Below, piece by piece: positions 6,231 to 60,892 of a stretch of DNA of 64,000 bases. Position 1 is the first letter of the stretch. Every line of letters begins with the position of its first letter. The stretch lies in sequence record MH791411.1. The stretch is one strand, 5' to 3'. This DNA comes from Escherichia phage Ecwhy_1. The notes beneath the pieces were generated by a model. That model saw only the letters and a program-made list of their open reading frames with translations, made no database searches and was not told the DNA's origin. Made by a program: the position numbers and the translations under genes.

Positions 6231-6539
6231 CTATAGCAAGTCGTTTTCCATATCGTCAAGAACAGAATCGACGATGTTCGCTGCTATCTTCTTAGGCATC
6301 TTGAACCACTCGGTGTTAGGTTGCCTTACTGCGTTCATTTGTTTTAGTCTTTTGTGAATTTCTTTCTCTGCTAAACGTGCATCTTCAAAGTGTACTTCAT
6401 GGTATACCACAAAATCTCTAAAAGGTGTAGCAGTTTGATATGTCCTTAAACGTTCTGTCATTTCAGATTTACTGGTAAATCCTATCTTAACATAATCAGG
6501 CCACGCATCATTTACTATAACATAACATATCTGTGACAT
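6231..6539 (-). CDS. T5orf172 / GIY-YIG-like domain protein (~102 aa)
   Basis: CYVIVND...YVKIGFTS...RLRTYQTATPF...EKEIHKRL...EWF matches the T5orf172 (MUG113) pattern as recalled; ATG at 6539 has a GGAGA SD (track ORF starts 15 nt earlier). Confidence 0.6.
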   Translation of the reverse strand: MSQICYVIVNDAWPDYVKIGFTSKSEMTERLRTYQTATPFRDFVVYHEVHFEDARLAEKEIHKRLKQMNAVRQPNTEWFKMPKKIAANIVDSVLDDMENDLL

Positions 6540-6578
6540 AGAAAATATCTCCATCAGTAATATGAAGATATTTATTAA

Positions 6579-33000: not shown

Positions 33001-33473
33001 TGCCTAAACCGCCAACATCTGTTGAATTGAAAGACATTTTTAAAGAAGTTGAACAAAAAATAGTCATCAGTGACAGTATTATTTGGCATAGTGCAGAATA
33101 TCTACCATTATTTGGTGCGAGTGCTGCTGAAGATTATAAAGCAGATTTTAAAGTCGTCAAATTGCCTAACAGTACAATGAGTGATGATGAAATTCGTCAA
33201 AATGTCGTAGCACTAACTAACGAGTATTTTAATGTTGACAACTGGGATTTTGGTGAAAGTTTCTATTACACAGACTTGTGTACATACATTCATTCCCAAT
33301 TAGGACGACATATTAGTACTATTGTTATCGTAGCTCAAAACCCTAACTCTAAATTTGGCTCACTATTTGAAATCCCTTCACGTTCTGACCAGATTTTCTT
33401 AAGTACTGCATCAGTTGATAACGTACAGATAGTCAATTCCTTGGCTAAGAGTAACATTAACATTGGTTCATAA
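30012..33473 (+). CDS. 6: baseplate wedge protein, baseplate-J (gp6-like) family, 1153 aa
   Basis: N-terminal region DYLRATYPDSFNDWIENDQFIFILDTISMLGQNLAFRMDLNTRENFLDTATRRASVLKLAKMISYSPRR is typical of baseplate J / gp6; follows gp25-like as in P2 W-J. Confidence 0.6.
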   Translation: MSQQKRQSNLYAGEDWTQVYESFYKINLTAYDFDTIRQSMIDYLRATYPDSFNDWIENDQFIFILDTISMLGQNLAFRMDLNTRENFLDTATRRASVLKLAKMISYSPRRSYPGRAVAKLTEIKTNQDVRNSFNESLKDKIIRWNDPMDTNWYENFILVMNSSFVSTNQFGNPVKRIDINGVSRQLYRMNTIPMSAPSLPFTATVNGESMTFEVVNPDITAVGVEERHPEPQEQKYIVYQNDGNGFSSPNTGFFVYFVQGTLTYQDYQYNIREENRIQDINVDNINETDVWVQEINEDGIVRTKWTKVPSMESIAYNTVNRQLKTIFAVTTRDKDQITIKYPDSRSGVVPRGTYRVWYRVSNGETYNIKTSEIQNKSVKYTYRTKTQSSYESSTLDIRFTLQYESDRAQSAETIEQIKARAPQMYYTQNRFVNGEDYNIAPLSLGNTVLKSKAINRLYSGQSRFIDINDPTGKYQNTDVFSDDGSMYQENTQFNKSLQLPTTKTNASIVIDNIQPLIGENAVIQRYQAYPPNTIGIEIQQKWTPEYNSNYATNTYGRIMGATGNVFGNYQVGTLIKFSNAGTTVWASIVSVLDNGYYVLSTSVSSNMQAQEYILQYRTRFNSVEVQAIAAMLDKKTDFVIIHDKETTSWIPLEISTDEDTISYNGNEVLVMINIKYTAETWEFDANGVEYVFVGGDKVRFYFVSSKKITDISTGSVQSDKIEILSSNTTSNSNAGLTSNIDFQIYDTIQQENGYLDGSRVVITSENVDSNGIPLEPNQFREIVPNWTGEDSVKYGGILVFQENDDFTISVLSLPNDTFTILDSSWAYTMDQALAETNAYKRSEFVRNNAIRSTTLSGIYSKGSGFIVGFNYDGKYYFIEQTVGNNNDRLNQLIENLTYSDDTTAATPELAFYRAIVNIGTNADVNQKLDYYGYKDVTSQYTVKTNARTGIDFHWKHYAPDDNRIDPSRTNLIDMYVLTNSYKTEVDVWLKNGTQGNMPKPPTSVELKDIFKEVEQKIVISDSIIWHSAEYLPLFGASAAEDYKADFKVVKLPNSTMSDDEIRQNVVALTNEYFNVDNWDFGESFYYTDLCTYIHSQLGRHISTIVIVAQNPNSKFGSLFEIPSRSDQIFLSTASVDNVQIVNSLAKSNINIGS

Positions 33474-33507: not shown

Positions 33508-33553
33508 ATCATAAATAAATCAAATGAATGAACGAATTATATGGAGTCCAAAA

Positions 33554-39500: not shown

Positions 39501-42500
39501 TTCGTGATACAATCTATGTACCACCATTGCATTCCAGAACTAAATCTTGTACTGATATTGCTCGTATTATTAAAGAACCAGCACAGCTTAACATTCCTTG
39601 GTTTGCACCAATCAATGAAAGCTCGTTCATTCTAAGTAATATGCAATTTGAAGTCAACGATGACACAAGTATTTTAACTGTTTCTTATTACATGGATAAT
39701 ACTGAAGTTATTAAACATGACCAGTATCAATTATGTAAAGAAGGTGATAGCTATAACTTCAATCCATCAATCTGGACTTCTATGTGGAATTCTATGATTG
39801 GTCAAGAAACTACTGAATCAGGAACTGTTATTGATTTACTATATCCTTTAGTACCAAACGGTTTAGGTTCTAATAAGACTTGGTTCCAAGATGTAATTGA
39901 AGCTCGTAGAAACTTTGTAGAAAGTGCAAATAACTATTATCGCTCACAGAATATAACAACTAACACTGTTCTAATGGACGAAGTGTTTAATGTTAAAACT
40001 ACTGAAGTTAACCCGAATGAAGTATCATATCGTGTACTAACTTACAATAGTGAATTAGTCATTGCACCTGAAAGTGACAAGTTCAAAGAAAACGACGCAG
40101 TACTAGTAAGTACTAGTGGTGTATTACCTAACCCACTATCAACTAGCTCTGTATATTTTGTGCATATTGATGCTAATGGTTATATTCATCTAATGAATAG
40201 TCCATCAAGTGCTGGTAGTGTGGTTACCATTACATTGGAAAACCGTGGTGAAGGTCAACAGAAAATGATTAAACAATCAGACTATGTTGAAGCACTAGGA
40301 ACTTCATTGGACATGACCCAGTACTGGTCACTAGCAGATTGGTATGATATTGGCTACGATAAAAATACTGCATATACACAAGAATCCAGCCTAGAAGATG
40401 CAAACACTAAGAACTATCAAGTTGGTGACATTATCAGAATTACAGATGTTGATGGCATCTGGACATTGTACATTAAAGCACAATCACGTGATTCAGTTTA
40501 CTGGAAAGCAATTGGTCGTGAAAATAGTACAGTTGAATTGAATGATATGTTATACGCTGACTATACAGTTCGTGATGCTAATGGTTCGTTGAGTAATCGT
40601 GAGATTAACGTTCGTAAAGCACTAGCTTTATTGAAGAACTCATTCGACTTACATCAGAGTGAAATTGTGTTTGATATGGTTAAGTATGTTCACGTAGAAC
40701 AAAGCGTTGTTGATTGGGTATTCAAAACATCTTACATTTATATTGTAGGTTTAGAACAATCATTAGTACAGAACTATTCCAACGACAACTTGATTAATCA
40801 AATCGTTGAGTACTTTGAAGAAGTTAAACCATATAGAACTAAGATTCGTTCCCAGATTGAACAGAAAACTTCAGATGATGATTTAATTAAAGGTTTGTGT
40901 AATGATTTAGATCCTAATGGCTATATATTTGCAGATGGGACTTGGGTTAAAACGGAAAAAGACATTTGGGATTATGAATATGCTCAATTCAATGAGGTAA
41001 CTCAACGTTGGGAGCAAGTTGGTGAATTGCCAAGTGATTTCGTAACACCTAATCGCCGTTTCCAAGAAATTGATGTTATCATGCACTACGACAACACTCA
41101 ATGTAAACCAAATGATAATTTGGCAAGTGTTGATGTATTGGAAGAAGTGAATAAGAAATATCAATCTAATGCACAAGATGTTGTTAGTAATTTTGAATTA
41201 CAACGTTACAAATATACATTCCCAGAATACAGTGATGAAGATTTCGACCTATTGGTTGCTTATCAGATGCAATTGTATTACCCAGAATTGAACGTAACTC
41301 TAGGGATTGCTTACGGTGTTAACCAATGGTATGCAGACCATGCAGATGATTTGGTAGCAACCGCAGAATTCACAGAAACGTTGAATCGTGTATATAAAGA
41401 ATCAACACAAAATGAAATGTTTAATGACGTAAATCATTATGTTCAGTATAACACACTCTCTAACCGTTTGAAATTGTACACAGGTGCAGATGATGAAGTA
41501 ATTCATGATGAGGTTGGATGTGGATTTAGTGGGTTAACCTATGATGATAATCCAAGCACCAGACTACCGTTTGGTTATGCATCCAGTACTGATTATAACT
41601 TTGGTTACTTTGAAGTTAGTAGTGAGTTGTATAAAAAGTATGTTTCTTTAATTAAAGAAAACAATACTACTGCAACTGATGATGAAGTTAGAATTATACT
41701 TGAAGTTGAATATGGTGTTTATTCATATCGCCATGTAGATGAAGATGGAAATCAACGATTCTACAATGACGCAATTCATGTATTGTCTGGTATGCGTGGT
41801 TTGTATGACAAAGATGCTACCGACCATTATGAAAAGGCTGAAGAAATACTAAGTAGAATGCCTATTGATATTCATGCATTTACTATGATGCCACGAAAAT
41901 ATGTTTATGTTAATGTTAATGGTGTATACGAGAGTATCCCAGATGACCAAAGCATTGATGATTTCATGGAAGACAAATTCATAACTGACGGTCAACTAGT
42001 TCAATTGGCAGAAATAAATCTTGATGACTTACCTCTTGATAGAAATAACCCAATGTACAGTGATTATCAGCACATCCTAGATAGCATCACCGATGCTAAG
42101 TACTACGATGATATGAATGCATTTGATAACCTAGCACTTGAATCACAAACTTCCGAGTTAAAATGGGAAGTTGAAGGTGACGAAGTAGATCCGTACATAA
42201 TCGACATTTCTGATATTAACCCATCAGGAAGAAAGATTGGTCAGATTCGCTTCACAGTTGATGGTTATGGATTCAATAGTGTTTCACTAGTTCAATTGAG
42301 AGACAATAGTAGATATAAAACTGAAGGTATGGTTATCATCAACCCTTATAAAACAACAGAAGCAATTGTTAGTATTCCTTCTTACGCTAAGATTGAAAAT
42401 GATATTAGTAAATCATACAGTAAGTATGATGAAAAATACTTCTATAAAATTAAATCAATTGTTAGTGATACAGAAGCTGAAGTAATTGACAATACCCTAT

Positions 42501-43525
42501 CTGATGGTGATAAGGTTATGATATTCACAACTGATGGTGAAGATTATGTGAGATACCAAAACAATGCATGGGAAACCATCTTGAGTGTATCAAAAATCAA
42601 AACTGACACCACACCAACCTTGTACACAGTAAGAAACACTGCGAACGGAACTGTAGAACTACTAGATAGTACTGGAGTTGTACTTCGTTATGATAACATC
42701 ACTAAACAACAACAGAATGAACCAGCAATACCTCTAGCATTGAACATCGTTCGTATTAGAACCTTTGCTGATCCAGAATTCTTGGTTGATGGTGTTAAGT
42801 TGTATGAAACAAATAGAAACTATGCTATCGACGCAATGAACTATGAAGTATTCTACGACACAACACTATACGGTGGTTCTTATAATGATGGAATTACACC
42901 AGATGACGTTGATGTTTGGGTAGTGTCTAACGAGATATTTGAAGTTGATGGTGTTACCATTGATAACGGATATAACTTACCAATTACTGGTGCAGGTGTT
43001 CTTAGTGAGTTAGTGAGAACCAAAATGACTGATAGTGTGGAAATTAACGTGTTCGAGTATGATGTTGGTATTATTCAACCAGTACTGAATACTGAAGGGG
43101 TATGGGAATATGCATATCCACTAGTTAGTGATACATATATTGGTGTAGTTGGTGGAACCGTAACTAACATTACTGCTATCAGTGAAGAAAATACTACTTA
43201 TGTTTCACAACCAGATTCAGTTAGTCCATATAGTGTTACTAATAATGTTCTATCTGGTGCTGGTGCAAGTATGAATGATATTATTTCTCTTGGTTTTGAA
43301 AAAGTTGAAGTACGTTTTGCAAATAACTTACTCCGTGGGGTAATGTATAGTGCAGAACACGACTTTAAAGAGAATGTGACATATTCATTTAATGGCTTGA
43401 ACTTAGGTAAAGTTAATTTACTAAAACGTTATAGTGTTAACAGTTATCCAATCGAACTATCTGTTTACTCCGATAGTTTGCAAATAAGTGGTACTGACAT
43501 TAAAAATCTATTAGAAGTTAAATAA
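33554..43525 (+). CDS. giant virion protein (~3323 aa), probable baseplate wedge (gp7/gpI-position) or fiber-network protein
   Basis: Uninterrupted 10-kb ORF; start taken at the second ATG with GGAG SD; CATAAATA late-type motif upstream; non-repetitive composition; position after gp6-like. Confidence 0.55.
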   Translation: MTNNFKFQPTQMAEAVQKKLFIKRLPEWMQGLEDIQKVSDDVIQQWFNPAENELVDGYIGDMGSPAAAGNIFLHESTVARQLYQLSTAYVSRNDDSSIRSIQFYDDLVGYMNHYGALTENESRLFNGKFYSWTPPINPNKMNNYSSYLWDSKNSYNITTPDYIVMERGAENGNTWSLQNFWYTLGETLEDGTILTEELMQDSRFVRARAPIIEYNKNIELMNYGTKFRGTVDLFSDIIKPEDIVQKDINSGIRIDGIIPQDGMRILFTSIGNNGENNRIYKVYVKRMQDGTRVYGLALDPDEESESRPSGEPQDGDVVLIIKGNEFGNSSMYWDGSHWIQAQSKTSVNVFPQFQLYDRNGVKLNNTTTYPSSTFTGSSLFGFKINYNYATDSVYGYNIELGDYNYYTYENFLQSTRYTYEHLGVEVEIDGLYYYNVIGEGNTMNLETDWVRSTEYSKQYVKQTPQVERTVMFRVFSTVYDMESFKDPVEGMYAYVIEVDRTYQYYKAERETYLDWHVIVGDGVQSVKYNHTFELAQKVLDNSDDIIELVVDGVEIKEYTKTVVNNQVQSITIDSSVDLDEDSVVQIRTYSSTITPNKELGAYEVPINLQNNPYNSNIEYINQGDYTLHFQDIIQKNITSGSADDFNNYEERLAAGLVNNGVGTKIIQNEASMLPLMAHTANEDIDLFESIMFMQAEYFRFINKFNTQMLRLYEEDPSAFLGNSASNIVDAILTAINMGRDSTFPFYYDNVASTAGFIRAFVPPTPQFLGILQAYTPQKATFLTAGSKSSCYNISHTGIISKAYRVINGVDKMDDVVFELENRIFNSIDLTFKDIDYKPVLNSEDLFPTPYFTGTDYSAEEKKTLLLRGYINFTATNGISNSTHDYDANNWRTWNYTGSYYVVDGQRTEIPARGSWRAIYTDQYGTYRPATHPWEMMGFSQRPTWWNQEYEPTAVQVGEREGDVVYVYEALVMNENGDLVPSGLWDIDGTIGDSSTGTILSGERRGQYDKYKRFGVQPFKITKTGEKTSTGIDICEVEYIAPEVLGLVSGNLDHRAEPWSYGDMGDMEFTYMNTAMFAYDQMLLLYKAKPAQFANYYWDTRNDNLKPVYTDGSQFLYGETRKRLNFDSTTLVHGEKNTRTIGYQMFVSDYLMYQNKNITTKYGDVVRSSYVNVAHKIGGFTKADQLTFTAKSFGLISQENQTIGLVRSNNIRDEQMSAVKITWNGSAYQIDGYDLVGAKFKYKIPVKNGRKVTLKLEDRTVVHYNEWKSEGTLEYGKIFNTYQEVYTFICGYGEYLKEHGWIFEDVNDSGTQQDWTTIAKDFVIWSQNNLSTGEFISCTPSAANAKFGADFGSVQSVTQNSGGVWSLLDDENQGIRQYEIETSRIGNVFTVRTTSESQKRMALIRLSLSSYEHAVVFDDKTIFGDYIYQPTYGAIQELIKMYGYITGSWTGRLQAPGFIILEAGTLPSFEKLVTDFELYYNSETPVSDVQLQELSNHLIGYQTRDYLQRMISSDVSRVDFYKGFIHDKGTNQVMEKVLRVSKSYDTDEYKALQEWAFKIGTYGNINGKKNLQFKLINDQFKQQPQMVSFDVNATSNGTGNGIVYYGEQGVDSRWITRPNGKFSFPMRSGRSENIQLPDIGPVTLDEISYVTKDFSTAYNDRINYMNNSGEIPDSVWMFKDGNDLWNIFELVDTEVEMLSIVPIENTDVYAEQFCKVTLSDDIPLNDGDYYYFVDETNFMPDTLTIESQYYTAGNDPRVMVVPFDTSITIDFTDPDTRPRLYRYVSRFSTEEMRQEYIDRKYSFKAPQSTLFDRPTTYDERTNITALYLNVFDPINGVIPGAAMQNVTYTSPVDPAQYNSNGELIQAWGADKVGQVWWNTSTAFYLDYTRAIYDADGNVDVDATNEYKRYNWGRLLPHSTVDVLEWVCSPVEPYNWDKYCKDVANKNKNNTMYLPSGTALEDNYSTFLEYDSTTDTYVTKYYFWVRDTIYVPPLHSRTKSCTDIARIIKEPAQLNIPWFAPINESSFILSNMQFEVNDDTSILTVSYYMDNTEVIKHDQYQLCKEGDSYNFNPSIWTSMWNSMIGQETTESGTVIDLLYPLVPNGLGSNKTWFQDVIEARRNFVESANNYYRSQNITTNTVLMDEVFNVKTTEVNPNEVSYRVLTYNSELVIAPESDKFKENDAVLVSTSGVLPNPLSTSSVYFVHIDANGYIHLMNSPSSAGSVVTITLENRGEGQQKMIKQSDYVEALGTSLDMTQYWSLADWYDIGYDKNTAYTQESSLEDANTKNYQVGDIIRITDVDGIWTLYIKAQSRDSVYWKAIGRENSTVELNDMLYADYTVRDANGSLSNREINVRKALALLKNSFDLHQSEIVFDMVKYVHVEQSVVDWVFKTSYIYIVGLEQSLVQNYSNDNLINQIVEYFEEVKPYRTKIRSQIEQKTSDDDLIKGLCNDLDPNGYIFADGTWVKTEKDIWDYEYAQFNEVTQRWEQVGELPSDFVTPNRRFQEIDVIMHYDNTQCKPNDNLASVDVLEEVNKKYQSNAQDVVSNFELQRYKYTFPEYSDEDFDLLVAYQMQLYYPELNVTLGIAYGVNQWYADHADDLVATAEFTETLNRVYKESTQNEMFNDVNHYVQYNTLSNRLKLYTGADDEVIHDEVGCGFSGLTYDDNPSTRLPFGYASSTDYNFGYFEVSSELYKKYVSLIKENNTTATDDEVRIILEVEYGVYSYRHVDEDGNQRFYNDAIHVLSGMRGLYDKDATDHYEKAEEILSRMPIDIHAFTMMPRKYVYVNVNGVYESIPDDQSIDDFMEDKFITDGQLVQLAEINLDDLPLDRNNPMYSDYQHILDSITDAKYYDDMNAFDNLALESQTSELKWEVEGDEVDPYIIDISDINPSGRKIGQIRFTVDGYGFNSVSLVQLRDNSRYKTEGMVIINPYKTTEAIVSIPSYAKIENDISKSYSKYDEKYFYKIKSIVSDTEAEVIDNTLSDGDKVMIFTTDGEDYVRYQNNAWETILSVSKIKTDTTPTLYTVRNTANGTVELLDSTGVVLRYDNITKQQQNEPAIPLALNIVRIRTFADPEFLVDGVKLYETNRNYAIDAMNYEVFYDTTLYGGSYNDGITPDDVDVWVVSNEIFEVDGVTIDNGYNLPITGAGVLSELVRTKMTDSVEINVFEYDVGIIQPVLNTEGVWEYAYPLVSDTYIGVVGGTVTNITAISEENTTYVSQPDSVSPYSVTNNVLSGAGASMNDIISLGFEKVEVRFANNLLRGVMYSAEHDFKENVTYSFNGLNLGKVNLLKRYSVNSYPIELSVYSDSLQISGTDIKNLLEVK

Positions 43526-49269: not shown

Positions 49270-49305
49270 TAAAAAAAAGGAGCCAATGGCTCCTTTTTTC
49301 TTTTT
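49270..49305. terminator. bidirectional terminator
   Basis: GGAGCC-aat-GGCTCC hairpin between an 8-nt A-run and a 12-nt T-run. Confidence 0.75.
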
Positions 49306-50404
49306 ATACCCCAATTAGTGGGATACCTGTTATATTAAGTAGAACCGATGCTTGAAGCTTAACTGACTCACCTGCCGAAAGGTTGTTTACTATACCATCG
49401 ACGCGGAACCCTAAGTTTTTATTAGAGTTAAGAGAGTTAACCACCCAGTTTTCGTAATCCGCTTTTGTAATACCATTCGGATTTGGGAGAGTTGGGTCAA
49501 CACCATTAATTACCATAGATACATCCCAATTAGGGCGACTACTTGTAATTACATCCTTGATTGATTCTAGTTGTGTTATGCGACGTGGGTCTGGAATCTG
49601 ACTTGCACCAATTGAACCAGGAACAAATGTACCTTGGTTATCAACATAGAACTGACCTTTAATGAAAAATGTTTTTGAATTATACGGAAGAGAAACAATT
49701 TCACCTGATGAATCACTAACTTCACGAATCATAATTTTCAATTCATAAAAATAGTTACTACCAAATTCAAACACACCAGTACCATTTGTAAATGTTGTCC
49801 AGTTATTTGAATCAACCTGTGAAGTACCACCCATATTGAAGTACGCTAATGGCTTAGTACTGTTACTTTGTGTAAATTCAATATATTTCTTACCTGTATC
49901 ATAGTTGATATCAAGTAGTGTGGAGTACTCTTTATTTTCTGGACGAGATGTTTGAATTTCACGCCATTCTTTATTTTTCATTAGGACACGAAGGGAATCA
50001 CCATTACTGGTAAGAACCATACGACCCATAATACTATTTTCACCATCTGGTACTGTGTTGAAAATTGAAATCATTGGGATAGATGCCCAGTCAGCTTCAG
50101 ATGCAGTATCTACTGGCTGACGAGCATTATCAACTAATGCAAGAAGTAGTTCGCCAGTGTTGCCAGTATTTCTGTACCAAATCTGACCATTAACGTTACC
50201 ACGAGGTGCAGTAGCTCCACTGAAGTTCTCAACCAAGTGGAGGAAGTTTTCGTTCCATGCTTGACCGTAACCAACTTTATTTCGACCTGCAAAGTTTAAC
50301 GGTACTGGGTTACTACCAGGTTGGTTTGGTCCTAATATTACGTTATTTGGAATGGTAGCATAAACGCTACCATTACTTCTATAAATTGTATAACTTACAC
50401 TCAT
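49304..50404 (-). CDS. tail/baseplate structural protein (366 aa)
   Basis: Ser/Thr/Asn/Gly-rich, fiber-like composition; part of a three-gene minus-strand unit inside the tail region. Confidence 0.4.
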   Translation of the reverse strand: MSVSYTIYRSNGSVYATIPNNVILGPNQPGSNPVPLNFAGRNKVGYGQAWNENFLHLVENFSGATAPRGNVNGQIWYRNTGNTGELLLALVDNARQPVDTASEADWASIPMISIFNTVPDGENSIMGRMVLTSNGDSLRVLMKNKEWREIQTSRPENKEYSTLLDINYDTGKKYIEFTQSNSTKPLAYFNMGGTSQVDSNNWTTFTNGTGVFEFGSNYFYELKIMIREVSDSSGEIVSLPYNSKTFFIKGQFYVDNQGTFVPGSIGASQIPDPRRITQLESIKDVITSSRPNWDVSMVINGVDPTLPNPNGITKADYENWVVNSLNSNKNLGFRVDGIVNNLSAGESVKLQASVLLNITGIPLIGV

Positions 50405-50416
50405 ATCATCACCTTA

Positions 50417-51025
50417 TTATTGTAGTTGGACACGAACTGTGTATTTGATTTGCAAAACACGGTTAGCACTTTTCTCAACTGGGTGAAAAATAATATGGGT
50501 AAGTGGAATACCGCTATCACCATTTGTATATAAACCCAATTCGTCAAATACATATGTCCCATCCATGCTAGTACCAGAGCTAACACCTTGGTCAGATGGC
50601 TCACCTAAACCTAATGTACAAATACAGACGATATCAGTGTAAGCTTGACCTGGAATGTGAACAGTTGTAATGTTGTTATATTGTGAATCAATACCAGCAG
50701 AGATACGTGGGTTGATTTTTTTCAGATAAGTCTGAGAATATAGACCACCGAAAGAAGTAACGCGTGGTTTCTTGTATGTGATACGACCAGTACTCAAAAC
50801 TACTGTTCCACCATTACCAAAACGCATCTCACTAATAGATCCAATAGGAATACCAGTACTATCTTGATTATAAGCCAACGCATTAGCAATAGCAGTACTC
50901 ATATTTTCAGGGTGAATTGCGTTTGATTTATCCAAAACGATTTTTTGGTTAGATGGATCAGTAACGTCAGTAATTAGTACATGACCCTTAACAAATAGTT
51001 TTGGTTGTTCTGTTTCTAATTTCAT
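50417..51025 (-). CDS. structural protein (202 aa)
   Basis: ORF with coding-like composition in an operon with its neighbours; no recognisable motif. Confidence 0.35.
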   Translation of the reverse strand: MKLETEQPKLFVKGHVLITDVTDPSNQKIVLDKSNAIHPENMSTAIANALAYNQDSTGIPIGSISEMRFGNGGTVVLSTGRITYKKPRVTSFGGLYSQTYLKKINPRISAGIDSQYNNITTVHIPGQAYTDIVCICTLGLGEPSDQGVSSGTSMDGTYVFDELGLYTNGDSGIPLTHIIFHPVEKSANRVLQIKYTVRVQLQ

Positions 51026-51034
51026 TTCTAATCC

Positions 51035-51532
51035 TTAGTAGTTAATTAAAATTTGTTCTAACTTACCAGCTAAACTTTTTTGTACATCAGATGGATACTT
51101 GCTAATGTAATCACGGTCAATACCAACTTTCAGATAGGTAAAGTTTCCGGTTAAGGTTTCAGCGAATGTACCAGTTGTACCTTGTTCTCTAATAAGGTCA
51201 CCACCATTTGGGTTAAGAATGACATTATCAGTAAATTCAAGATAGAAGTTGCAGCTTTCGGTAAATTTAATTGGGAACCAATCATCGTCAGATGGATTAC
51301 TTGCCAGTGTAGCGAGTACGTAAATTCTACCAATGAAGTTACGTAGGGTAAAGGATATTGTATGTAATCCTGTAGTACTACCATAATAGCCGCCACTAGC
51401 TAATGGTAATGTTTGTTCGTTCCAATGATAATCTAAGTTAGCAGGATACCAGCTATCTGATTCAGGAAATTCTTGCCATGAACCATCTTTAGTTTTTCTT
51501 TTGAAGAGGAAGTCTTTTGATCTTAATGCCAT
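51035..51532 (-). CDS. structural protein (165 aa)
   Basis: AAAGGG SD; AATAAATA late-type motif upstream; no recognisable motif. Confidence 0.35.
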   Translation of the reverse strand: MALRSKDFLFKRKTKDGSWQEFPESDSWYPANLDYHWNEQTLPLASGGYYGSTTGLHTISFTLRNFIGRIYVLATLASNPSDDDWFPIKFTESCNFYLEFTDNVILNPNGGDLIREQGTTGTFAETLTGNFTYLKVGIDRDYISKYPSDVQKSLAGKLEQILINY

Positions 51533-51641: not shown

Positions 51642-52769
51642 ATGACAATTTCATTCAACAATGGGTCAGGTGGTTCATGTAATAATTCTGGCATCAAAAG
51701 TTTAGTTATTAACGCTGCTGGACATTTAATTGTAACCTATTCCGACAATACAATCCAAGACCTAGGTCTAGTGGTTGGACAAAATGGTGCTAACGGTAGA
51801 AACTTTTATCCAAATGAGATAGGTTTTGAAGTTCCTAATGAACTCTTCCGTGTTGGTGAAGAACTAGGGTGGTGTTATCTTAGTCTTGCAAATGGCACTA
51901 GTACTTTATATTTCAAATCAAACGATGCACAAGAAGCAATTAGTACTTGGAACCGTGTAGAGTTTGGTAAAGGCGATACTGGTGAAACTGGTAAACCATT
52001 CCACATTGACAGTTCTGGTACGGTGTTTCCAACAACTGGTCTTTTCAATAATTACACATTCTATAATACTGAAGATGGTAAATTATATTTCTATCAAAGC
52101 GTAACTGCAACATGGAGTGATGGTATTCCTTTCCGTGGTGAACAAGGTCTACGTGGTCGTTTCCATATTGATAGTACTGGTAGTCAATTCCCAAGCATTG
52201 ATAATCTACCACAAGATTATTGCTTCTATAACACGACAGATGGTAATTTGTATTATGTCGATATCGTAACTACATCATCAACCCCAACTAAAGAGTGGAG
52301 TGCTGGTATCTTATTCCGTGGAAAAGACGGTGAAGAAGGTAAGCAAGGTGAACAAGGTATTCAGGGTGAACCAGGTAAAGATACAGTTGTTATCATCAAC
52401 ACTATTGATCATTCATGGACTAACGCATTGTTAGTTATTGGTACATGCCCTGCTGGATACCTAGTAACTAATATCGAAGTTGATATTAACCAAGCATATG
52501 ATGAACCAGTAAATGAAATGTTTGTACGTTTCGGTGGTGAAGCACAAGAAGATATTGGTGGTACTGTAATTGCACCTGTTGATTATTTCGATATCAACCG
52601 CAAAATGCGTTACATTGTTAACGAAACCAACCACGAAGTATCAAGTAAAGATGAAATCATTTCTTGTGTATTCAATGATTCCGTAAACAACAGTTCATTT
52701 GGTGAAATGAAGATCGTTTGTACTTTATCATGGCAAGCACCTATTCAGCCTATTCAAGATAACATTTAA
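51642..52769 (+). CDS. fiber-like protein with short collagen-like tract (~375 aa)
   Basis: G-x-y repeat GKDGEEGKQGEQGIQGEPGKD; start taken at MTISFNN with AAGGGAAA SD; GATAAATA late-type motif upstream. Confidence 0.5.
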   Translation: MTISFNNGSGGSCNNSGIKSLVINAAGHLIVTYSDNTIQDLGLVVGQNGANGRNFYPNEIGFEVPNELFRVGEELGWCYLSLANGTSTLYFKSNDAQEAISTWNRVEFGKGDTGETGKPFHIDSSGTVFPTTGLFNNYTFYNTEDGKLYFYQSVTATWSDGIPFRGEQGLRGRFHIDSTGSQFPSIDNLPQDYCFYNTTDGNLYYVDIVTTSSTPTKEWSAGILFRGKDGEEGKQGEQGIQGEPGKDTVVIINTIDHSWTNALLVIGTCPAGYLVTNIEVDINQAYDEPVNEMFVRFGGEAQEDIGGTVIAPVDYFDINRKMRYIVNETNHEVSSKDEIISCVFNDSVNNSSFGEMKIVCTLSWQAPIQPIQDNI

Positions 52770-52783: not shown

Positions 52784-54925
52784 ATGGCAGTTTTTTCCAA
52801 TTTAGAAGGGACCATGATGCCAACATTCAAGTTGGGTAAACGTGGTGCTTCTATTAATTTTGTAAACGATTCTGTCGCAATCAAAGACTTTTTAGGCGAA
52901 ACGTTCCTACCTGTTAAGGTGGGAACTCCTAATGACGATGATTCCGCAGTAAACGTTAGGTATCTTGAAGATAACCCAAATGCTTTATTTGGCGTACTTC
53001 CACCAACAAATGACATTGGTAAAAATAACAACACTTATTTTCAAGTTGATTCTGAGGGTATTGTTGATATCTTTGCAAAAACAAATGATGTTTGGGTAAA
53101 ATCATTATACATTAATAAAAATGTCCTTTCCAGTGTTAACGGTGCTGATTATATCGGACTTATTACTGGAGGAACACTTCAACAGGCACAGTTTTACATA
53201 ACTCCAGAAGAGTTTGGTGCAAAAGGTGATGGCATCACTGATGACACGGCGGCGGTTAACGCATGTGCAGTTTATGCTAAAGAACACAAAATCCAAATTC
53301 AAGCTGGTGGTAATTATCGTATCAGAACTGCTGTTTATTTGAATGATATTCAATGGTTTGGTGGTACAATCACTGGTAACGGTGGCACAATGGTATCGGT
53401 ACTGAATAGTACAATCCAACAAGCAACATTAACAGGATGTTATTTAAAATTCTTTGGTGGTAATGGTAAATTTTATTTTAATAAATTTATTAATATTACA
53501 AGTACTGCTGCATTTCTAATGCAAGGTATGACTGAATCAGGTACTATCGACTTCTGCTTTAATGAAATGACACAATGTAAGTACGGTGTTCTTCAGCAAG
53601 GCACTGGTGAGAAAATGACCGTTGGGCGTTATTCATACAACCACATCCATGATATATATGGTGATGCAATTGAATTGAACGTAGTCAACTCACATTACCC
53701 AGACGGATTTGTAATAGAAGGTAACTTGATTGAAAACGTAGATGGTACAAATGCACCAATTCCTCTTTCAAACTGGGGTATTGGTATCGGTGTTGCAGGT
53801 TCTGGTCCTTATGATGTGAATGCTGATGATTCACAATATGTAAAAAAATTCGTTATAAAAAATAACCGCTTGTACAATGTCCGTCAATGTATTCACGTTG
53901 AGTTGGGTAAAGACTTTAAAATTCTCAATAATGAAGTTTATCCATCAACGTTGGTATCAATTGGTACTGGTTTGACAACCGCTGGTGTAATTACTTATGG
54001 TTCTGTTGATTTTATTATTGATGGCCTATCTGGGCATCTATTAAATGATCCATCAGTAACTAACCGTATGGTTTCTATTAACTGGGGCGTAACATCTGGT
54101 AAATTTGCTGGTCCTCCACGAAACTTTAAATTATGTAATCTCCACATTCCTGAGTCGTCTATTATTGTGTATACTTCAGGCTCTGATAATTGGCTAAATA
54201 CTACTGAACTTTCTAATATTACATGTAGTAGAATTCAATGGCGTGGATTGCCGTCATCTTCCAAGTTTAATAATATCAGTACTAAAGAACTTGATGTTAT
54301 TGGACAACACCTTGCAACTGAAGGTGAAGGAGGGGGCTTATATACTCGCTCTAAATATACATATACCAACTGGACTAATTGTGTTGTTCAAGATGATTGT
54401 AACATATCAAAATATAGTTTCTCAAGAATGTATGTTGACCGTATTGACCAATCATCTAATAACTTTAAAGTAACCACTGCAATTGATGGAACGGGTCATC
54501 GTGGACCTGTAGTAATACCTGTAGTTGAACAGTATTACGTGCCTTATGATGTTTTTCCTGGTGGGAGATATTTCCCAGCAGGAACAATTATCCATAAACA
54601 ATCAGGTGGAAAATTTATTGTTACAGTAGGTGGTTCTTTCTTTGGTCGATATGACACAATTAGACAAACAGTTGCAGGACAAACTTATATCGAAGCATTG
54701 GGTGTATCATGGGGTGATAATCAATATGCTAAAGCTGCTGGAACCGAAATCCTAATCACAGGAGCAGGGGAAAATGGCGAAGATTTAAAAACATATATCA
54801 CTAGAGCAGTTTATGTTGTTAATAATGCGTATCGTATCGATATTGCCGATCCGATTGTTACTGCTACCGCAGCAGGGGCATTATTGAAAGCTGCTCAACC
54901 AATAACATATATCACCCTATCTTAA
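52784..54925 (+). CDS. tailspike with pectate-lyase-like beta-helix (probable polysaccharide depolymerase), 713 aa
   Basis: ITPEEFGAKGDGITDDTAAVNA is the hallmark N-terminus of pectate-lyase-3-type tailspike beta-helices; N-terminal MAVFSNLEGTM adapter shared with the next gene. Confidence 0.6.
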   Translation: MAVFSNLEGTMMPTFKLGKRGASINFVNDSVAIKDFLGETFLPVKVGTPNDDDSAVNVRYLEDNPNALFGVLPPTNDIGKNNNTYFQVDSEGIVDIFAKTNDVWVKSLYINKNVLSSVNGADYIGLITGGTLQQAQFYITPEEFGAKGDGITDDTAAVNACAVYAKEHKIQIQAGGNYRIRTAVYLNDIQWFGGTITGNGGTMVSVLNSTIQQATLTGCYLKFFGGNGKFYFNKFINITSTAAFLMQGMTESGTIDFCFNEMTQCKYGVLQQGTGEKMTVGRYSYNHIHDIYGDAIELNVVNSHYPDGFVIEGNLIENVDGTNAPIPLSNWGIGIGVAGSGPYDVNADDSQYVKKFVIKNNRLYNVRQCIHVELGKDFKILNNEVYPSTLVSIGTGLTTAGVITYGSVDFIIDGLSGHLLNDPSVTNRMVSINWGVTSGKFAGPPRNFKLCNLHIPESSIIVYTSGSDNWLNTTELSNITCSRIQWRGLPSSSKFNNISTKELDVIGQHLATEGEGGGLYTRSKYTYTNWTNCVVQDDCNISKYSFSRMYVDRIDQSSNNFKVTTAIDGTGHRGPVVIPVVEQYYVPYDVFPGGRYFPAGTIIHKQSGGKFIVTVGGSFFGRYDTIRQTVAGQTYIEALGVSWGDNQYAKAAGTEILITGAGENGEDLKTYITRAVYVVNNAYRIDIADPIVTATAAGALLKAAQPITYITLS

Positions 54926-54939: not shown

Positions 54940-55839
54940 ATGGCAGTTTTTTCTAATTTAGAAGGAACCATGAAGAAGACCTTCATACTTGGTAAAAATG
55001 GTGCACAAATTGCCACTAATGGTAATGTTGTTCAAATCCAGAACTACACGGGTACACAACTTCTTCCTGTTTCAGCAGGTGACCCAACCGCAAATACACA
55101 CTTGGTTACATTGGGTTATTTGAATACACATAGCGGTGGTGGTGGTGGTTCCGGTATTTTACGTGGAACTATTGCACCATCTGAATCAATCGGTGTAGAT
55201 GGTGACGCTTACTTCTTAGTTGACAGTACTAATATTATTCAGATCTATATTAAAGACCTTGGTGTTTGGAAGCCTCTCCAAAGCACAACTCCAGGTACTG
55301 ATAGTTCTTACGTTACTACTGAAATCGTTCCTGTATCGGCATTTACATTAGTTCCTGGAACAACAGATCAATATACTTATTCTTTGCCTGAATCAGTACA
55401 TGGTCGTGGTCCAGATATTATGGTTCAGCTACAGGGTGATCCTGGTAACATCCCACTTGACACTGTATTCCAAACTAACGTCACTGTGAGTGGTATTGGT
55501 GACATTACGATTGATGTTATTGGTCAAATCACTGAATACACAAGTGTCAAAGTCAACATCATAGGAGCAACAACAATGACAGTACCTTATAGTAAATTAA
55601 TTAATATAGCAGATTGGGTAGCATCTGGTGATGATTACACCATTACTGTTCCAGCGTCAGAACATAACCAAACACCTGACAATTTGTATATTTCTATATA
55701 TTCAAATAAAACACCAGGCAGTACAGCAGCATCACCATTTGAACTGGTAATAACCGAAACTCAAATTGATGCAAGTGGTAATGTTACATTCACTTCTGAC
55801 GAAGCGTTTAGTGGTAAAATAGTAATTTCCGGTAAATAA
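54940..55839 (+). CDS. second receptor-binding protein sharing the N-terminal adapter, 299 aa
   Basis: First ~35 nt nearly identical to 52784 (MAVFSNLEGTM...LGK.GA); distinct C-terminal domain; poly-Gly linker GGGGGSG. Confidence 0.5.
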   Translation: MAVFSNLEGTMKKTFILGKNGAQIATNGNVVQIQNYTGTQLLPVSAGDPTANTHLVTLGYLNTHSGGGGGSGILRGTIAPSESIGVDGDAYFLVDSTNIIQIYIKDLGVWKPLQSTTPGTDSSYVTTEIVPVSAFTLVPGTTDQYTYSLPESVHGRGPDIMVQLQGDPGNIPLDTVFQTNVTVSGIGDITIDVIGQITEYTSVKVNIIGATTMTVPYSKLINIADWVASGDDYTITVPASEHNQTPDNLYISIYSNKTPGSTAASPFELVITETQIDASGNVTFTSDEAFSGKIVISGK

Positions 55840-55957: not shown

Positions 55958-58900
55958 ATGTACTCGATTAAAACAGATCTCGATATAACTGGTGGTGCAA
56001 CGGTTGCTAAAGATCTTCTTGTGAAAGGCGATGCAGTATTCAATAAAAATCTAACAGTTAATGGAACTGTAACTTTTGCTGACGCTGTATTCACTGCAAT
56101 TGAAGCAGAAACTGTAGACATTTCATCTACACTAGATGTTGCTGGTAAAGCATCATTGAATGGTGGAATTGAAGTTCATGGTAATTCCGTAATTGGTAAT
56201 TTGCCTGTTGGTTCTGATACTGCAACGATTAATTCTAATGCACAATTCCAAAGCCCAGTATCAATGGCAGGTAATCTAACACAAACCGCTGGCACTGCTG
56301 TACTAAAAGATACCCAAGTGGCATCAATGGATGTTCTTGGGACTTCTTCATTTAAAGGTAATATTACTGCTGAAACTGGCACTACCGCAGCATTTGACAA
56401 AATAACTGCAACTGATGCAACATTCACAAACACTGCAACTACTGATATCACATCAACTGGAACTGCAAACTTTAAAGATGTGAATATTTCCGGTACACTA
56501 GGTGGAACATTTAGTCTATCTGATGTTAATGCAACAACTCTAACTGTTTCTGGTTTAACCAGTCTACAAGGTGGTGTTACATTAGGTTCCAACATTACTG
56601 GTGTGAATAGTAGTGCAAACTTCCGTGATATTAAAATTGGTTCCAATGCTGCAAACACTAACTACCGTTTGAGCTTTAACTATTCTGCTCCAAGTCTTCG
56701 TCCAACTGTAATTCTACAGAACGAAATCCAATCAGAATTGATGTCTCCAGCTACCCTAAGTGTATTGAAAACTGCATCTTTTGGTGATTCGTCACTATCC
56801 ACTTTTGGTATTACTGGTAATGGTCTAAACAAACTAGATTACCTAACAGTATCTGGTAACTCTGTTCAAGATCCAACAACTCCACTATTACAAGTAACTT
56901 CAGGTAAAACTAAAGTTCATGATTTCGAAGTAACAGGAACTGCAACTATTCCTAACATTGAAAGTACTGGTACTGCTAATTTTAATAACATCAACGTATC
57001 TGGTACACTCGGTGGTACTTTCAGTCTTGATGATATTGAAGCAAACACACTAACTGTATCCGGTTTAACTAGCCTTGTTGGTGGTGTAACTTTAGGTGCT
57101 GATATTTCCGGTGCTAATAGTACTGCTAATTTTAAAGCAGTAAGTTTAGGACAAAACGCCGCCGATGCTAACGTTAAGTATGGTTTTGCTTATTCTGCCC
57201 CTGGTGCTCGCCCAACTGTAATTCTACAAAATGAAATTCAGTCTGAGCTAGTATCTCCAGCAGTACTTAATGTACAAAAAACTGCAACCTTTGGTGATGC
57301 ATCTCTTGCAACCTATGGTATCACAGGTAACGGTCTAAACAAACTAGATTATCTATCTATTACTGGTAATGGTACACAAAGTCCAGCTACCCCACAACTA
57401 CAAGTTGCTGGTAAATCAGTACTAAATGATGTTGAATTCACTGGTACTGTAACTGGTCTAACTGTTGATGTGAGTGGACAAGATCTAACTCCTAAATCAG
57501 TAGATGCTGCTGAAGCAATCAAAGGTCAAACCCTTGAATCAGTTGGTCAAACCACAGTAGGAACTAACCTACAAGTTGGTGGAACTGCTAATGTTGTTGG
57601 TGCACTAACTGGTACTGCTGCTACCTTCACTGGTGATGTAAGTGCTGCTAAAGGTACTTTCAGTGGTGATGTTAGCGTTACTGGTCAAACTGTAACTGTA
57701 CGTGATTTAGTAGTAACTGGTACAACTACTGGTGTAACTGCCCAAGCTGATGTTGATGGTCTTGATATCGCCCCAAATAAAGTTGATGTTACAACAACAC
57801 TATCTGTTGCTGGGGACACTACTTTAGCTGGCCTAACTGCTAGTTCAGTAACCAGTACTGGTGATGTTACTGGTGCGTCTGTATCTGGTAATACAGTAAC
57901 TGCGGCTGGGGCACTATCTGGTGGTTCTCTTGCAGTAACTGGTGCTGGTTCTATGGCTTCACTAACTGTTCCAAGTATTACTGGTGACACTACTTTTGCT
58001 AATAACGTAACTATTACTGGAACACTAACTCCGAGTAGTATAGATTTAAGCACTACTGATGTAAGTGCTGCTTCTTTAACAACTACTGGTAACGTAACTG
58101 TTGGTGGTTCTCTTGCAGTAACTGGTGCTATTGATTTGTCTGCTGCTGATGTAGTAACAAAATCAGTTAGTGCAACTAACCCAAGTACATTTGGTGTAAT
58201 TAATGCATCTTCTGTTGCCGCAACTGGTGACGTTTCAGGTGGCACACTAACTACTACTGGTGCAGCGAAAGTAGGAACACTAACTAGTACTGGTGTAGTA
58301 TCTGGTTCGCGTTTGTCTTCTGGTACTGCAACAATCACAACTTCTGTAACAGTTCCAACTTTACAAGCTGAAGCTGCTGGTGCTGGTACACTAAATCTAG
58401 CAAGTAATGTTGTCGCGGCAAAAGATCTAACTGTCACTGGTGTATTCAAACCTGAAGGTGGTCTTGATCTAACAACTGTTGATATTACTGCAAACTCACT
58501 AACTACTACTGCTGATGTTAATGTTGGTGGAAACTTAGTAGTTGATGGTACTTTTGACCTAAGTGCTGCTGATGTGTCTGTGAAATCTCTTGCAAGTGCA
58601 GAGACAATTACAAGTGCTGGTGTTATTACCGTTACCGATTCAACCAATACTAGTTCGTTACCTAAAATTACTTCAACTGATGCAACACTCTTTACAGTAA
58701 ATGCAGGTACTATTAATGCAACTGGTAACAGTGTACTACAAAGTGTATCAGCTACTCAAGTAACTGCTAATAGTGCTGAATTTTCTGGTGGTGGCCTTGG
58801 TCTTCAAGTTGATAATGATGCAAACGTTGGTGGTGCATTATCTGTTGGTGGCATTGCAACTGTTGGTTCTTTAACAACAACTGCTGCTTCTCTTAATATT

Positions 58901-60892
58901 GCAAAAAATACTGCAATCACTGGTGATTTAGCTGTATCTGGCACACTAACTGCTGGTTCAATCGACCTAAGCAATACTGATGTAACCGTTAAATCTCTTG
59001 ATTCACTAGGTAACGCACACATTGCTGGTAACCTAACTGTAGATGGTGCATTCGACTTAAGTGCAACTAACCTTGTAGCTGCAAGTCTAGCAAGTACTGG
59101 TTCTACTACTGTTGGAACTGATCTAGTACTAACAACTGGTGTTGTGACTGGTAGCCCAGCTATCTCTGGTAATACAACAATCGGTGGAACTCTTGGTGTA
59201 ACTGGTGCTGTTAACCTAACTGATATTGTTAATATCGGTAAGAAAGTAACAGTGAGTACTGGTGGTATTCAGGTAGTTGATGGTGGTATCAATACTAACA
59301 CAATTAACGTTTCTGGTGCTTCTACTCTAGCAGGAACTTCCATTACTGGAACTTTAGGTGTAACTGGTGCTTCTACTCTAGCAGGTGTATCTGCGACATC
59401 ACTAACAGTTTCTGGTGACAGTACTGTTCAGAAACTAACTGTCCAAGGTGAATTGATCCCACAAGGTGGTCTTGACCTAAGCGGTGCAGACATTACTGCT
59501 AATAGTCTAACTACTGCGACAACTATCAATGCAACTGGCCTAAGTACTCTAAGTGGTGGTGTTAGTACTTCTACTGTGACTGCATCTGGTCTAGCAACTG
59601 TTGGAAGTTTAACTTCTACTGCAAACGCATCAGTTGGTGGTAATTTGGGTGTAACTGGAACTCTAGGTGTTACTGGTGCAACTACTGTATCTTCACTAAC
59701 AGCTACTGGTGCAGTGAAAACTGGTACAACCCTAACTGTTGGTACTCCAGTTGGTGAACAACCTGAAACTGTACAGATCATTCCAGATACTTATATTGCT
59801 GGTAAATTGCGTGTAATCGGTGGTATTAACGCTGAAATCGACGTAAGTGGTCAAACACTAGAACCATATGCAATTGAAGCTGCTGCAACACTATCTGCTG
59901 TTGGTAACATTACTTCTGGTGCAACCATCGTTTCTAAAGCTGCAACAATTGGTGATGTTGGTTCACAAAACAACAACCTAACTGTTAATGGTAACGTAGT
60001 AACTAATGGTGACTTCACCGTTACTGGTGTACTAAATGCACAATTGAACCAAGCAGATTCCGATGTAGCTGTTAAGTCTTTGACTGCAACTAATAACGTT
60101 GCGGCTGGTACTTCAATCACTGCTGGAACATCCATCACTGCATCAGGCTTACTAAAAGGTAATTCGTTAGAAGTCACCACTACTGGTTCATTTGGTGGTG
60201 CAGTAACTATGTCAAGTGGTGCAAACATCACTGGTACTGTTGGTATCACTGCTGGTGACCTAACAGTAGGTGGTAATATCTCTGCAACTGGTACTGCTGG
60301 ATTCGGTGCAACAACCGTTTCTACCATTACAACATCAGGTTTAGCTACCCTTGCAAGTGCATCTGTAACTGGTGCTCTAACTGTAGGTGGTACATTAACT
60401 GCAAATGGTAACACTGTGATTGGTGATGCTGCTGCTGATACTTTAACTGTAAATGCAACATCTACATTTAAAGAGAACGCAACATTTGATAAGAACCTAA
60501 CAGTGACTGGTTCTATTAACACCACCACTGCAAACTTCACTACAAACAACATGGTAACTAAGAAATATTCTGTTATCCCTGCTAGTGTTACTGCTTCTAC
60601 TGCTGCTGTAGGTGGCACTTGGACACCAGATGGTACTACTAACGTATATCGCTTAACTCTTGACCAAAGTGTTACAATGGATTCCATCGCGGGTCTAATT
60701 GGTAGTGGTCAAGCATGTTCAGTGTATATCTATGTAACTCCATCTGTTGCTGATACTACTTTCACCTTCGGTGGTGCATACTCTGTAGTTTCTGGTACAG
60801 TAAGTGCTGTAGTTGGTCAAACAAGTATTATCCAAGTAATCTATGATGGTTTCAGTACTGTGTTTGATACCTTCGTTGCACAACGTGTATAA
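55958..60892 (+). CDS. long tail fiber protein, 1644 aa
   Basis: Thr/Gly/Ala/Val/Ser-rich with many internal repeats (ISGTLGGTFSL..., TGNGLNKLDYL..., VDVSGQDLTPKS... each occurring twice or more); GGAGGG SD. Confidence 0.65.
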   Translation: MYSIKTDLDITGGATVAKDLLVKGDAVFNKNLTVNGTVTFADAVFTAIEAETVDISSTLDVAGKASLNGGIEVHGNSVIGNLPVGSDTATINSNAQFQSPVSMAGNLTQTAGTAVLKDTQVASMDVLGTSSFKGNITAETGTTAAFDKITATDATFTNTATTDITSTGTANFKDVNISGTLGGTFSLSDVNATTLTVSGLTSLQGGVTLGSNITGVNSSANFRDIKIGSNAANTNYRLSFNYSAPSLRPTVILQNEIQSELMSPATLSVLKTASFGDSSLSTFGITGNGLNKLDYLTVSGNSVQDPTTPLLQVTSGKTKVHDFEVTGTATIPNIESTGTANFNNINVSGTLGGTFSLDDIEANTLTVSGLTSLVGGVTLGADISGANSTANFKAVSLGQNAADANVKYGFAYSAPGARPTVILQNEIQSELVSPAVLNVQKTATFGDASLATYGITGNGLNKLDYLSITGNGTQSPATPQLQVAGKSVLNDVEFTGTVTGLTVDVSGQDLTPKSVDAAEAIKGQTLESVGQTTVGTNLQVGGTANVVGALTGTAATFTGDVSAAKGTFSGDVSVTGQTVTVRDLVVTGTTTGVTAQADVDGLDIAPNKVDVTTTLSVAGDTTLAGLTASSVTSTGDVTGASVSGNTVTAAGALSGGSLAVTGAGSMASLTVPSITGDTTFANNVTITGTLTPSSIDLSTTDVSAASLTTTGNVTVGGSLAVTGAIDLSAADVVTKSVSATNPSTFGVINASSVAATGDVSGGTLTTTGAAKVGTLTSTGVVSGSRLSSGTATITTSVTVPTLQAEAAGAGTLNLASNVVAAKDLTVTGVFKPEGGLDLTTVDITANSLTTTADVNVGGNLVVDGTFDLSAADVSVKSLASAETITSAGVITVTDSTNTSSLPKITSTDATLFTVNAGTINATGNSVLQSVSATQVTANSAEFSGGGLGLQVDNDANVGGALSVGGIATVGSLTTTAASLNIAKNTAITGDLAVSGTLTAGSIDLSNTDVTVKSLDSLGNAHIAGNLTVDGAFDLSATNLVAASLASTGSTTVGTDLVLTTGVVTGSPAISGNTTIGGTLGVTGAVNLTDIVNIGKKVTVSTGGIQVVDGGINTNTINVSGASTLAGTSITGTLGVTGASTLAGVSATSLTVSGDSTVQKLTVQGELIPQGGLDLSGADITANSLTTATTINATGLSTLSGGVSTSTVTASGLATVGSLTSTANASVGGNLGVTGTLGVTGATTVSSLTATGAVKTGTTLTVGTPVGEQPETVQIIPDTYIAGKLRVIGGINAEIDVSGQTLEPYAIEAAATLSAVGNITSGATIVSKAATIGDVGSQNNNLTVNGNVVTNGDFTVTGVLNAQLNQADSDVAVKSLTATNNVAAGTSITAGTSITASGLLKGNSLEVTTTGSFGGAVTMSSGANITGTVGITAGDLTVGGNISATGTAGFGATTVSTITTSGLATLASASVTGALTVGGTLTANGNTVIGDAAADTLTVNATSTFKENATFDKNLTVTGSINTTTANFTTNNMVTKKYSVIPASVTASTAAVGGTWTPDGTTNVYRLTLDQSVTMDSIAGLIGSGQACSVYIYVTPSVADTTFTFGGAYSVVSGTVSAVVGQTSIIQVIYDGFSTVFDTFVAQRV

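Follow-up and report, generated by a model that had tools for sequence, protein, structure and literature searches.

Two otherwise unrelated fiber-type proteins of Escherichia phage Ecwhy_1 begin with the same short peptide, and comparison of the two protein families indicates that this six-residue start, M-[T/S]-I-S-F-N, is a selectively maintained signature of two non-homologous fibers in every RaK2-like genome examined. Both proteins are encoded in the 64,000-nucleotide stretch of sequence record MH791411.1 that was analyzed here (the window). Protein A, a collagen-like fiber, is the product of the open reading frame (ORF) 51642..52769(+), which has 375 codons for amino acids and starts MTISFNNGSGGSCNNSG (MTISFNNGSGG…), and protein B is the product of ORF 4561..6189(−), which encodes 542 amino acids and starts MSISFNNPLDTMTSTG (MSISFNNPLDT…). 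The genes lie about 45 kb apart in the window, and each has an AAGGGA Shine-Dalgarno sequence 6-7 nucleotides upstream of its start codon. Codons 1-7 are ATG ACA ATT TCA TTC AAC AAT in A and ATG AGC ATA AGT TTT AAT AAC in B, all six codons after ATG being unlike. An earlier reading of the window made from the letters alone (the sequence-only reading) had reported the M-(S/T)-ISFNN start in both ORFs and its different codons, and was exact on both counts; its labels for the two proteins also hold, with four G-X-Y runs in A, the longest at residues 227-247, and three HxH motifs in B. The peptide is hydrophobic at M1, I3 and F5 and polar at T/S2, S4 and N6, an alternation that, judged from residue order, is the pattern of a two-faced beta-strand, with the variable position 4 of B (S or R) on the polar face.

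RaK2-like jumbo phages have adsorption machines that are among the most elaborate known. We know of no structure of the baseplate to which their fibers are fixed. It is plausible that the six-residue start helps to fix or assemble each fiber there, and we give an even chance to the more specific reading that A and B are co-resident fibers carrying the same kind of minimal N-terminal anchor at separate places, both of which are occupied at once.

Conservation of the shared start in both fiber families

By sequence, the window is from an Asteriusvirus, a RaK2-like jumbo myovirus of E. coli: megablast of positions 51000-55000 gave 99.9% identity to Escherichia phage vB_Ec-M-J (Asteriusvirus, 378 kb) and ~81% to PBECO4, 121Q, and phAPEC6. 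Genome-wide counts were made in the near-identical vB_Ec-M-J (OQ718158.1; 358 kb of unique sequence, assembled from eight pieces), where A and B are the only proteins that start with M[ST]I[SR]FN and a relaxed pattern added one further ORF, unrelated to either. When the residues of 608 non-overlapping ORFs were shuffled within each N-terminal position, pairs with five or more of six identities at positions 2-7 numbered 1.6 on average, and unrelated real pairs as similar as A and B exist among these ORFs (e.g., MNIDKV, MISKY[KN]ES). Taken alone, the match between A and B in one genome is not significant, and since it falls within chance, the real evidence is the conservation of the start in both families. 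An array of 14 paralogous RCC1-like genes (‘regulator of chromosome condensation’) at OQ718158.1 333206..350767, outside the window, all starting MLPF[VA]RM…, supplied most of the high-identity N-terminal pairs in this test.

MTISFN is kept among 55 homologs of A that are 44-99% identical, and MSI[S/R]FN among 117 homologs of B that are 45-99% identical. When seven-residue windows were ranked by conservation over the same sequences, the first seven residues came fourth of 369 in A and third of 535 in B. Even an A homolog with 41% identity starts MAISFNN, and seven further IMG/VR genomes carry both genes with both motifs on the same contig. The deep consensus common to the two families ends at the sixth residue; the seventh identity (N) is limited to B proteins starting MSISFNN, such as those of the window and phAPEC6, position 7 being H in 99 of the 117 B homologs and N in most A proteins. 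At position 4, B has S or R, and A has S or, rarely, T. Variant starts were found in A (MTLSLN, P0040) and in B (MSLSIN, P0126/P0173), on contigs from different samples that end before the partner gene.

The codons used for these residues differ between the families across the clade. Ser4 of B is encoded by AGT or AGC and Arg4 of other members by AGA, and the TCN codons of A are never used there; no sign of gene conversion between the A and B starts was found across the clade. The same residues specified by different codon sets, with no visible gene conversion, point to selection on the peptide and not to shared DNA. No paper turned up in a full-text search of the literature library for the peptide strings.

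Limits of the similarity and predicted structures

Alignment of the A and B family profiles with hhalign, using the first 40 residues, the first 110 residues, or the full length, matched residues 1-6 only, and the AlphaFold2 monomer models of the two proteins have no N-terminal domain in common. Searches of PDB sequences with A and B gave nothing useful. The likeness that the sequence-only reading had taken for a possible docking peptide is thus confined to six residues with no common domain after them, largely the outcome that this reading had itself named as counting against its proposal. In A, residues 1-14 have a predicted local distance difference test (pLDDT) score below 50, ahead of a three-stranded beta-meander at residues 18-43 and of repeat modules separated by low-confidence G-X-Y stretches. 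In B, residues 1-27 form a coil without secondary structure (pLDDT ~61), and the model continues with a meander at residues 58-78, a long helix at residues 81-99, and beta-rich shaft domains. AlphaFold2 reportedly failed on full-length RaK2 gp098, the ortholog of B.

For the free monomers of A and B alike, the models therefore predict a disordered start peptide, and this predicted disorder, combined with conservation near the top of each family, is consistent with a strand that takes shape only upon assembly. In the mechanism that we propose, A and B would be two different trimeric fiber-type proteins of one virion, whose peptides, disordered in the free subunit, would each become an ordered beta-strand on assembly. 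That strand might pair with a partner strand of the baseplate, or it might form the cap at the N-terminal end by which the trimer plugs into the baseplate. The two fibers would not be rivals for one place, their anchors being at separate places.

Weighing the proposed co-resident anchor against other explanations

Several observations weigh against an anchor of this kind, beginning with the chance expectation given above. Same-contig A/B pairs from the seven IMG/VR genomes and from the window, RaK2, CBB, and phAPEC6 showed no covariation between the start residues, but with A hardly changing and B varying on its own, this comparison is neutral. An identical socket is not indicated by the sequences, given the differences at positions 4 and 7 and the lack of covariation; the fixed differences T2/S2 and N7/H7 argue against one. 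Codons 1-4 of A (ATG ACA ATT TCA) are identical, synonymous sites included, in 17 of 17 motif-bearing IMG/VR loci (L019-L035), although the A proteins of these loci are only 55-80% identical, and the same codons are found in A of the window, phAPEC6, RaK2, and CBB; such invariance (51642..51653 in the window) hints that a further constraint acts on the RNA or on translation. Proteomics of RaK2 virions detected gp098, the B ortholog, and did not detect gp062, the A ortholog (PMC3622015). Docking through a beta-strand, into the same type of socket or not, is what we infer from sequence conservation, residue pattern, and monomer models. Finally, an alternating run of six residues from AT-rich codons could have arisen twice by convergence.

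Convergence is a serious alternative, although we consider it somewhat unlikely. It holds that there is no common partner, that folding or trimerization within each family is what maintains the first strand, and that the likeness follows from a common pattern (Met, small polar, Ile, polar, Phe, Asn) made of the AT-rich codons favored by this phage. The expectation of ~1.6 such pairs per genome, with unrelated examples at hand, favors it, as do the lack of A/B homology past residue 6, the family-specific residues T2 or S2 and N7 or H7 with no covariation, and the MSIKF start of P2 gpH, by which such starts recur in fibers. Convergence accounts less well for the identity of the carriers, the sole two of 608 ORFs with this start both being fiber-type proteins whose orthologs have been detected in virions, and for the peptide ranking in about the top 1% of conserved segments of both families and yet lying outside any AlphaFold2 domain. 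The co-resident anchor could also be taken further, with M-[S/T]-I-S-F-N as a clade-wide address tag that would enter, as a beta-strand, equivalent sockets of a repeated baseplate domain and would thereby guide two unrelated trimeric fibers to the baseplate in all RaK2-like jumbo phages; this extension we regard as improbable.

A constraint on nucleotides or translation, in which strong late expression would keep the first codons AT-rich and free of structure, the peptide being a by-product, is very unlikely as the whole explanation. The invariant synonymous sites of A and the strong AAGGGA ribosome-binding sites of both genes are what such a constraint would produce. The two peptides are, however, encoded by different codons at every position after ATG, the B start varies synonymously (AGC/AGT, ATA/ATT) with the residue unchanged, and other highly expressed structural genes of the window do not have this start. 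A translation-level constraint may add to the codon invariance of A; it cannot explain the shared peptide.

Presence of both fibers in the same virions

The sequence-only reading had suggested that the peptide marks a common docking site and that B, as a cassette fiber near the polymerase, may compete with or replace A, and had named virion proteomics as the means to see which of the two is incorporated. Published data for CBB show that both are: in one virion preparation, the A ortholog CBB_228 was represented by 13 peptides (44% coverage) and the B ortholog CBB_260 by 11 peptides (24%). In the phAPEC6 virion proteome, the A ortholog gp253 is abundant, with 14 peptides and 65.6% coverage, and B is not listed in the table. 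The phAPEC6 genome nevertheless contains an intact, unannotated B ORF of 536 amino acids (MSISFNN…) at L051 4512..6122(−), corresponding to MK817115.1 ~137511..139121, between gp220c and gp222c; within this stretch, the GenBank record calls only a 49-amino-acid ‘gp221c’. This annotation gap probably left the ORF out of the protein list that was searched. Mutual exclusion, as read from the seemingly complementary proteomes of RaK2 (B only) and phAPEC6 (A only), was rejected since the B gene of phAPEC6 is intact but unannotated.

Every RaK2-like genome examined has both A and B, and throughout the genera covered the two genes belong to the syntenic core. CBB and metagenomic relatives share the order major capsid gene … B – chaperone – DNA polymerase, which holds across genera, and in RaK2 the B gene likewise adjoins the capsid module. 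This conserved order indicates that B is not a mobile cassette and that only its C-terminal tip is exchanged. The whole of A is conserved in phages that infect Escherichia, Klebsiella, Erwinia, Yersinia, Cronobacter, and Xanthomonas, and full-length conservation across these hosts argues that it is not a typical host-range determinant. Competition of the two fibers for one virion site through one docking peptide, which the conserved common N-terminus and the proteomes of RaK2 and phAPEC6 had seemed to favor, is hardly credible given both fibers in CBB virions, the annotation artifact in phAPEC6, the syntenic core position of both genes, and the full-length conservation of A, unlike that of an exchangeable receptor-binding protein. 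What survives of the docking-peptide proposal is a selected start in two genuine virion fibers; rivalry for a single site and the status of B as a cassette find no support.

Features of the two fibers

The main features of both genes and of the adaptor domains downstream of A are collected in Table 1.

Table 1 Positions of the two fiber genes, their conserved and variable parts, and associated genes in the window
Feature	Position	Strand	Basis
Gene A, 375 amino acids, conserved virion protein	51642..52769	+	phrog_13565 ‘tail protein’, E 7e-213
Conserved N-terminal peptide MTISFNN of A, codons 1-7	51642..51662	+	Family conservation
Longest collagen-like run of A, seven G-X-Y triplets, residues 227-247	52320..52382	+	Sequence
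Jelly-roll beta-sandwich head of A (predicted), residues 248-375	52383..52766	+	pLDDT block means mostly ~90
Gene B, 542 amino acids, tail fiber, ortholog of RaK2 gp098 / phiK64-1 S2-8	4561..6189	−	phrog_13229 full length, E 9e-247
Conserved N-terminal peptide MSISFNN of B, codons 1-7	6169..6189	−	Family consensus MSI[S/R]FNH
HxH region of B: HGH 269, HVH 307, HTH 324	5200..5394	−	Sequence
Variable C-terminal receptor-binding tip of B, residues 476-542, P2 gpH / Mu gp49 type	4564..4764	−	Family comparison
Tail fiber assembly chaperone gene of B, directly downstream	4041..4559	−	Caudo_TAP PF02413, E 5.8e-9; phrog_136, E 4.7e-34
N-terminal adaptor domain, ~110 amino acids (MAVFSNLEGTM…), start of colanic-acid-degrading tailspike (713 amino acids)	52784..53113	+	BLASTP
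Matching adaptor domain, start of 299-amino-acid virion protein (CBB_227 ortholog)	54940..55269	+	BLASTP

Protein A, whose orthologs are phAPEC6 gp253, CBB_228, and RaK2 gp062, is made up of the N-terminal peptide, a Gly/Ser/Cys linker (residues 8-17), the beta-meander (18-43), two internal repeats, four G-X-Y runs, and a jelly-roll head. The G-X-Y runs are short, at 3-7 triplets, and are broken up by globular beta modules; the Pfam Collagen family (PF01391) scored 16.8 bits, under its cutoff of 27.2, and a distant A homolog (P0057) gave a full Collagen match (E 3e-34). Foldseek matches of the head in the PDB were phage cement proteins (7dou/7dn2), coat proteins of plant viruses and satellite viruses, and CBM4 carbohydrate-binding modules, and the fold search of BFVD returned phage proteins with collagen repeats and C1q domains. 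The Gly/Ser-rich linker that follows the motif contains Cys13 (51678..51680), whose conservation in family A is 90% or more; in some members, two cysteines are present there (SCNCSG). By analogy with what has been reported for Pam3 fibers, a disulfide might join Cys13 to another chain or to the baseplate. Pfam found no depolymerase domain in A or B.

Protein B is 50% identical over 87% of the query to RaK2 gp098, with which phiK64-1 S2-8 is identical (tblastn against RaK2 and K64-1). RaK2 gp098 is reported to be a virion protein that is essential for infection and acts as a secondary receptor-binding protein, located on the underside of the baseplate, where antibody reaches it mainly after tail contraction (Noreika et al. 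2023, PMC10253068). By orthology with gp098, B of the window would likewise be located at the baseplate and required for infection. H324 and H326 of B are invariant among 48 aligned homologs. In the last tenth of the protein, the mean identity to the window sequence across the family falls to 26%, and relatives have Gp53-like_C or self-cleaving Peptidase_S74 modules in place of the tip found in the window. The best Foldseek match of B was a Mu tail fiber with its chaperone (5yvq, E 6e-5), and BLASTP against P2 gpH gave a weak match (E 0.003-0.004) in two short segments, the tip matching at E 0.004. A P2 gpH-type N-terminal baseplate-binding domain was not found in B, with no Pfam domain and nothing aligned N-terminally by BLASTP. 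P2 gpH (L014 3235..3249) starts MSIKFRTV, near the MSI[S/R]FN of B, with only the first five residues alike; this likeness may be a coincidence or an old shared N-terminal device. The small gene 6231..6554(−) beside B has counterparts with T5orf172/MUG113 domains in relatives, and in several genera it separates the capsid gene from B; it looks homing-endonuclease-like, yet its position is conserved.

Genomic context in the window

The window holds, in order, DNA polymerase; the chaperone and B; capsid, portal, and baseplate modules; A, which is the start of the tail fiber module; a colanic-acid-degrading tailspike; a 299-amino-acid virion protein; and a 1644-amino-acid fiber protein. The N-termini of the tailspike and the 299-amino-acid protein are 41% identical over 110 amino acids (BLASTP, E 2e-19), and this pair is, from its sequence likeness, a classical shared adaptor, the case that the sequence-only reading had envisaged for A and B, which are unlike it. 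In CBB and one metagenomic relative, the MAVFSNLEG protein directly follows A, which makes the tailspike look like an insertion that copied the adaptor domain. The tailspike is one 713-amino-acid ORF in the window (52784..54925) and two coding sequences (EcMJ_307, EcMJ_308) in OQ718158.1 (159600..161742), where either a frameshift, a stop, or a sequencing error splits it.

Another common start, MYSIKTDLD[IV][ST]G, occurs in giant fiber proteins (window 55958..60892(+); OQ718158.1 147531..153497 and 155418..158567). In place of the 1644-amino-acid ORF of the window, vB_Ec-M-J has a 1049-amino-acid protein and other fiber genes, so the fiber module differs between near-identical phages. Divergent from A lies the gene of a 366-amino-acid virion protein (49304..50404(−)), which was considered as a third carrier of the motif (MSVSYT…) and rejected because the starts of its orthologs diverge (MINYII, MATVNY, MSVNYT). 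Its orthologs keep an N-terminal stretch ending …YGQAxNENFLxLxENF, which we take to be like the N-terminal motifs of baseplate-attached fiber or adaptor proteins. This protein and the adjacent 202- and 165-amino-acid proteins (49304..51532 for the three) are candidate partners of A. Other baseplate or tail fiber proteins of the window that could receive the start of A or B are a gp6-like protein (30012..33473), a 3333-amino-acid protein (33524..43525), and the 299-amino-acid protein (54940..55839).

Comparison with known systems

If it is a true anchor, the shared start would rank with the shortest known attachment tags and be useful for host-range engineering; if it reflects only convergence, it is a curiosity. 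As a signature common to an essential secondary receptor-binding fiber and a collagen-like fiber, it is a target for mutagenesis and for the reading of cryo-electron microscopy density. Were the peptide an address tag, a graft of six residues would suffice to put foreign receptor-binding proteins on RaK2-like phages, and P2 gpH, with its MSIKF start, would hint at a device that predates the jumbo-phage clade. The analysis also corrects the idea of the two fibers as alternatives and shows that the gene of an essential fiber is missing from the phAPEC6 annotation.

Among known fibers, A is like collagen-like phage fibers with a C1q/TNF-type head in having four G-X-Y runs and a C-terminal jelly-roll, and is unlike them in that its runs are short, score below the Pfam Collagen threshold, and are interrupted by beta modules. 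B shares with RaK2 gp098 the gene neighborhood and the MSISFN start (MSISFNHP in P0146, a phiKp_21/RaK2-group sequence); they differ at the tip, which is Gp53-like_C in RaK2 and a different module with a separate Caudo_TAP chaperone in the window. The N-terminal peptide of gp098 and its match to gp062 are not discussed by Noreika et al. 2023 (PMC10253068). As in P2 gpH–gpG and Mu gp49–gp50, the fiber gene B is followed by a Caudo_TAP chaperone gene, in keeping with the Mu fold match and the weak P2 tip match, but B has HxH motifs, a different shaft, and, by Pfam, no P2-type N-terminal domain. HxH motifs bind metal in T4 fibers. An analogy with T4 gp12 is suggested by the HxH motifs of B and by the behavior of RaK2 gp098, which is reported to sit under the baseplate, to be accessible to antibody mainly after contraction, and to be needed after primary binding; no sequence homology between T4 gp12 and B was found, and the analogy rests on experiments with RaK2, not with this phage.

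Short conserved N-terminal peptides are known to attach other phage receptor-binding proteins. For secondary receptor-binding proteins, docking peptides of as few as 7 residues have been reported (Latka et al. 2019, PMC6872550), as in the tailspikes of K1-5, K1E, and SP6, which have conserved peptides of 7 or 11 residues, and in groups of Klebsiella phages (PMC6872550). In phage Pam3, one fiber is attached at two different platforms of the same baseplate wedge (PMC9942802). Like the K1-5/SP6 peptides, the start described here comprises 6-7 residues common to two otherwise unrelated fibers of one phage and kept among relatives, and, as in the systems described by Latka et al., the B peptide is conserved while the B tip diverges to 26% identity; A has no such distal divergence. 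The carriers in those systems are exchangeable depolymerase tailspikes on an identified adapter or T4 gp10-like domain; A and B, by contrast, are not depolymerases, A is conserved end to end, and the two genes lie 45 kb apart. The A/B signature is thus a variation on the known theme of conserved N-terminal attachment peptides.

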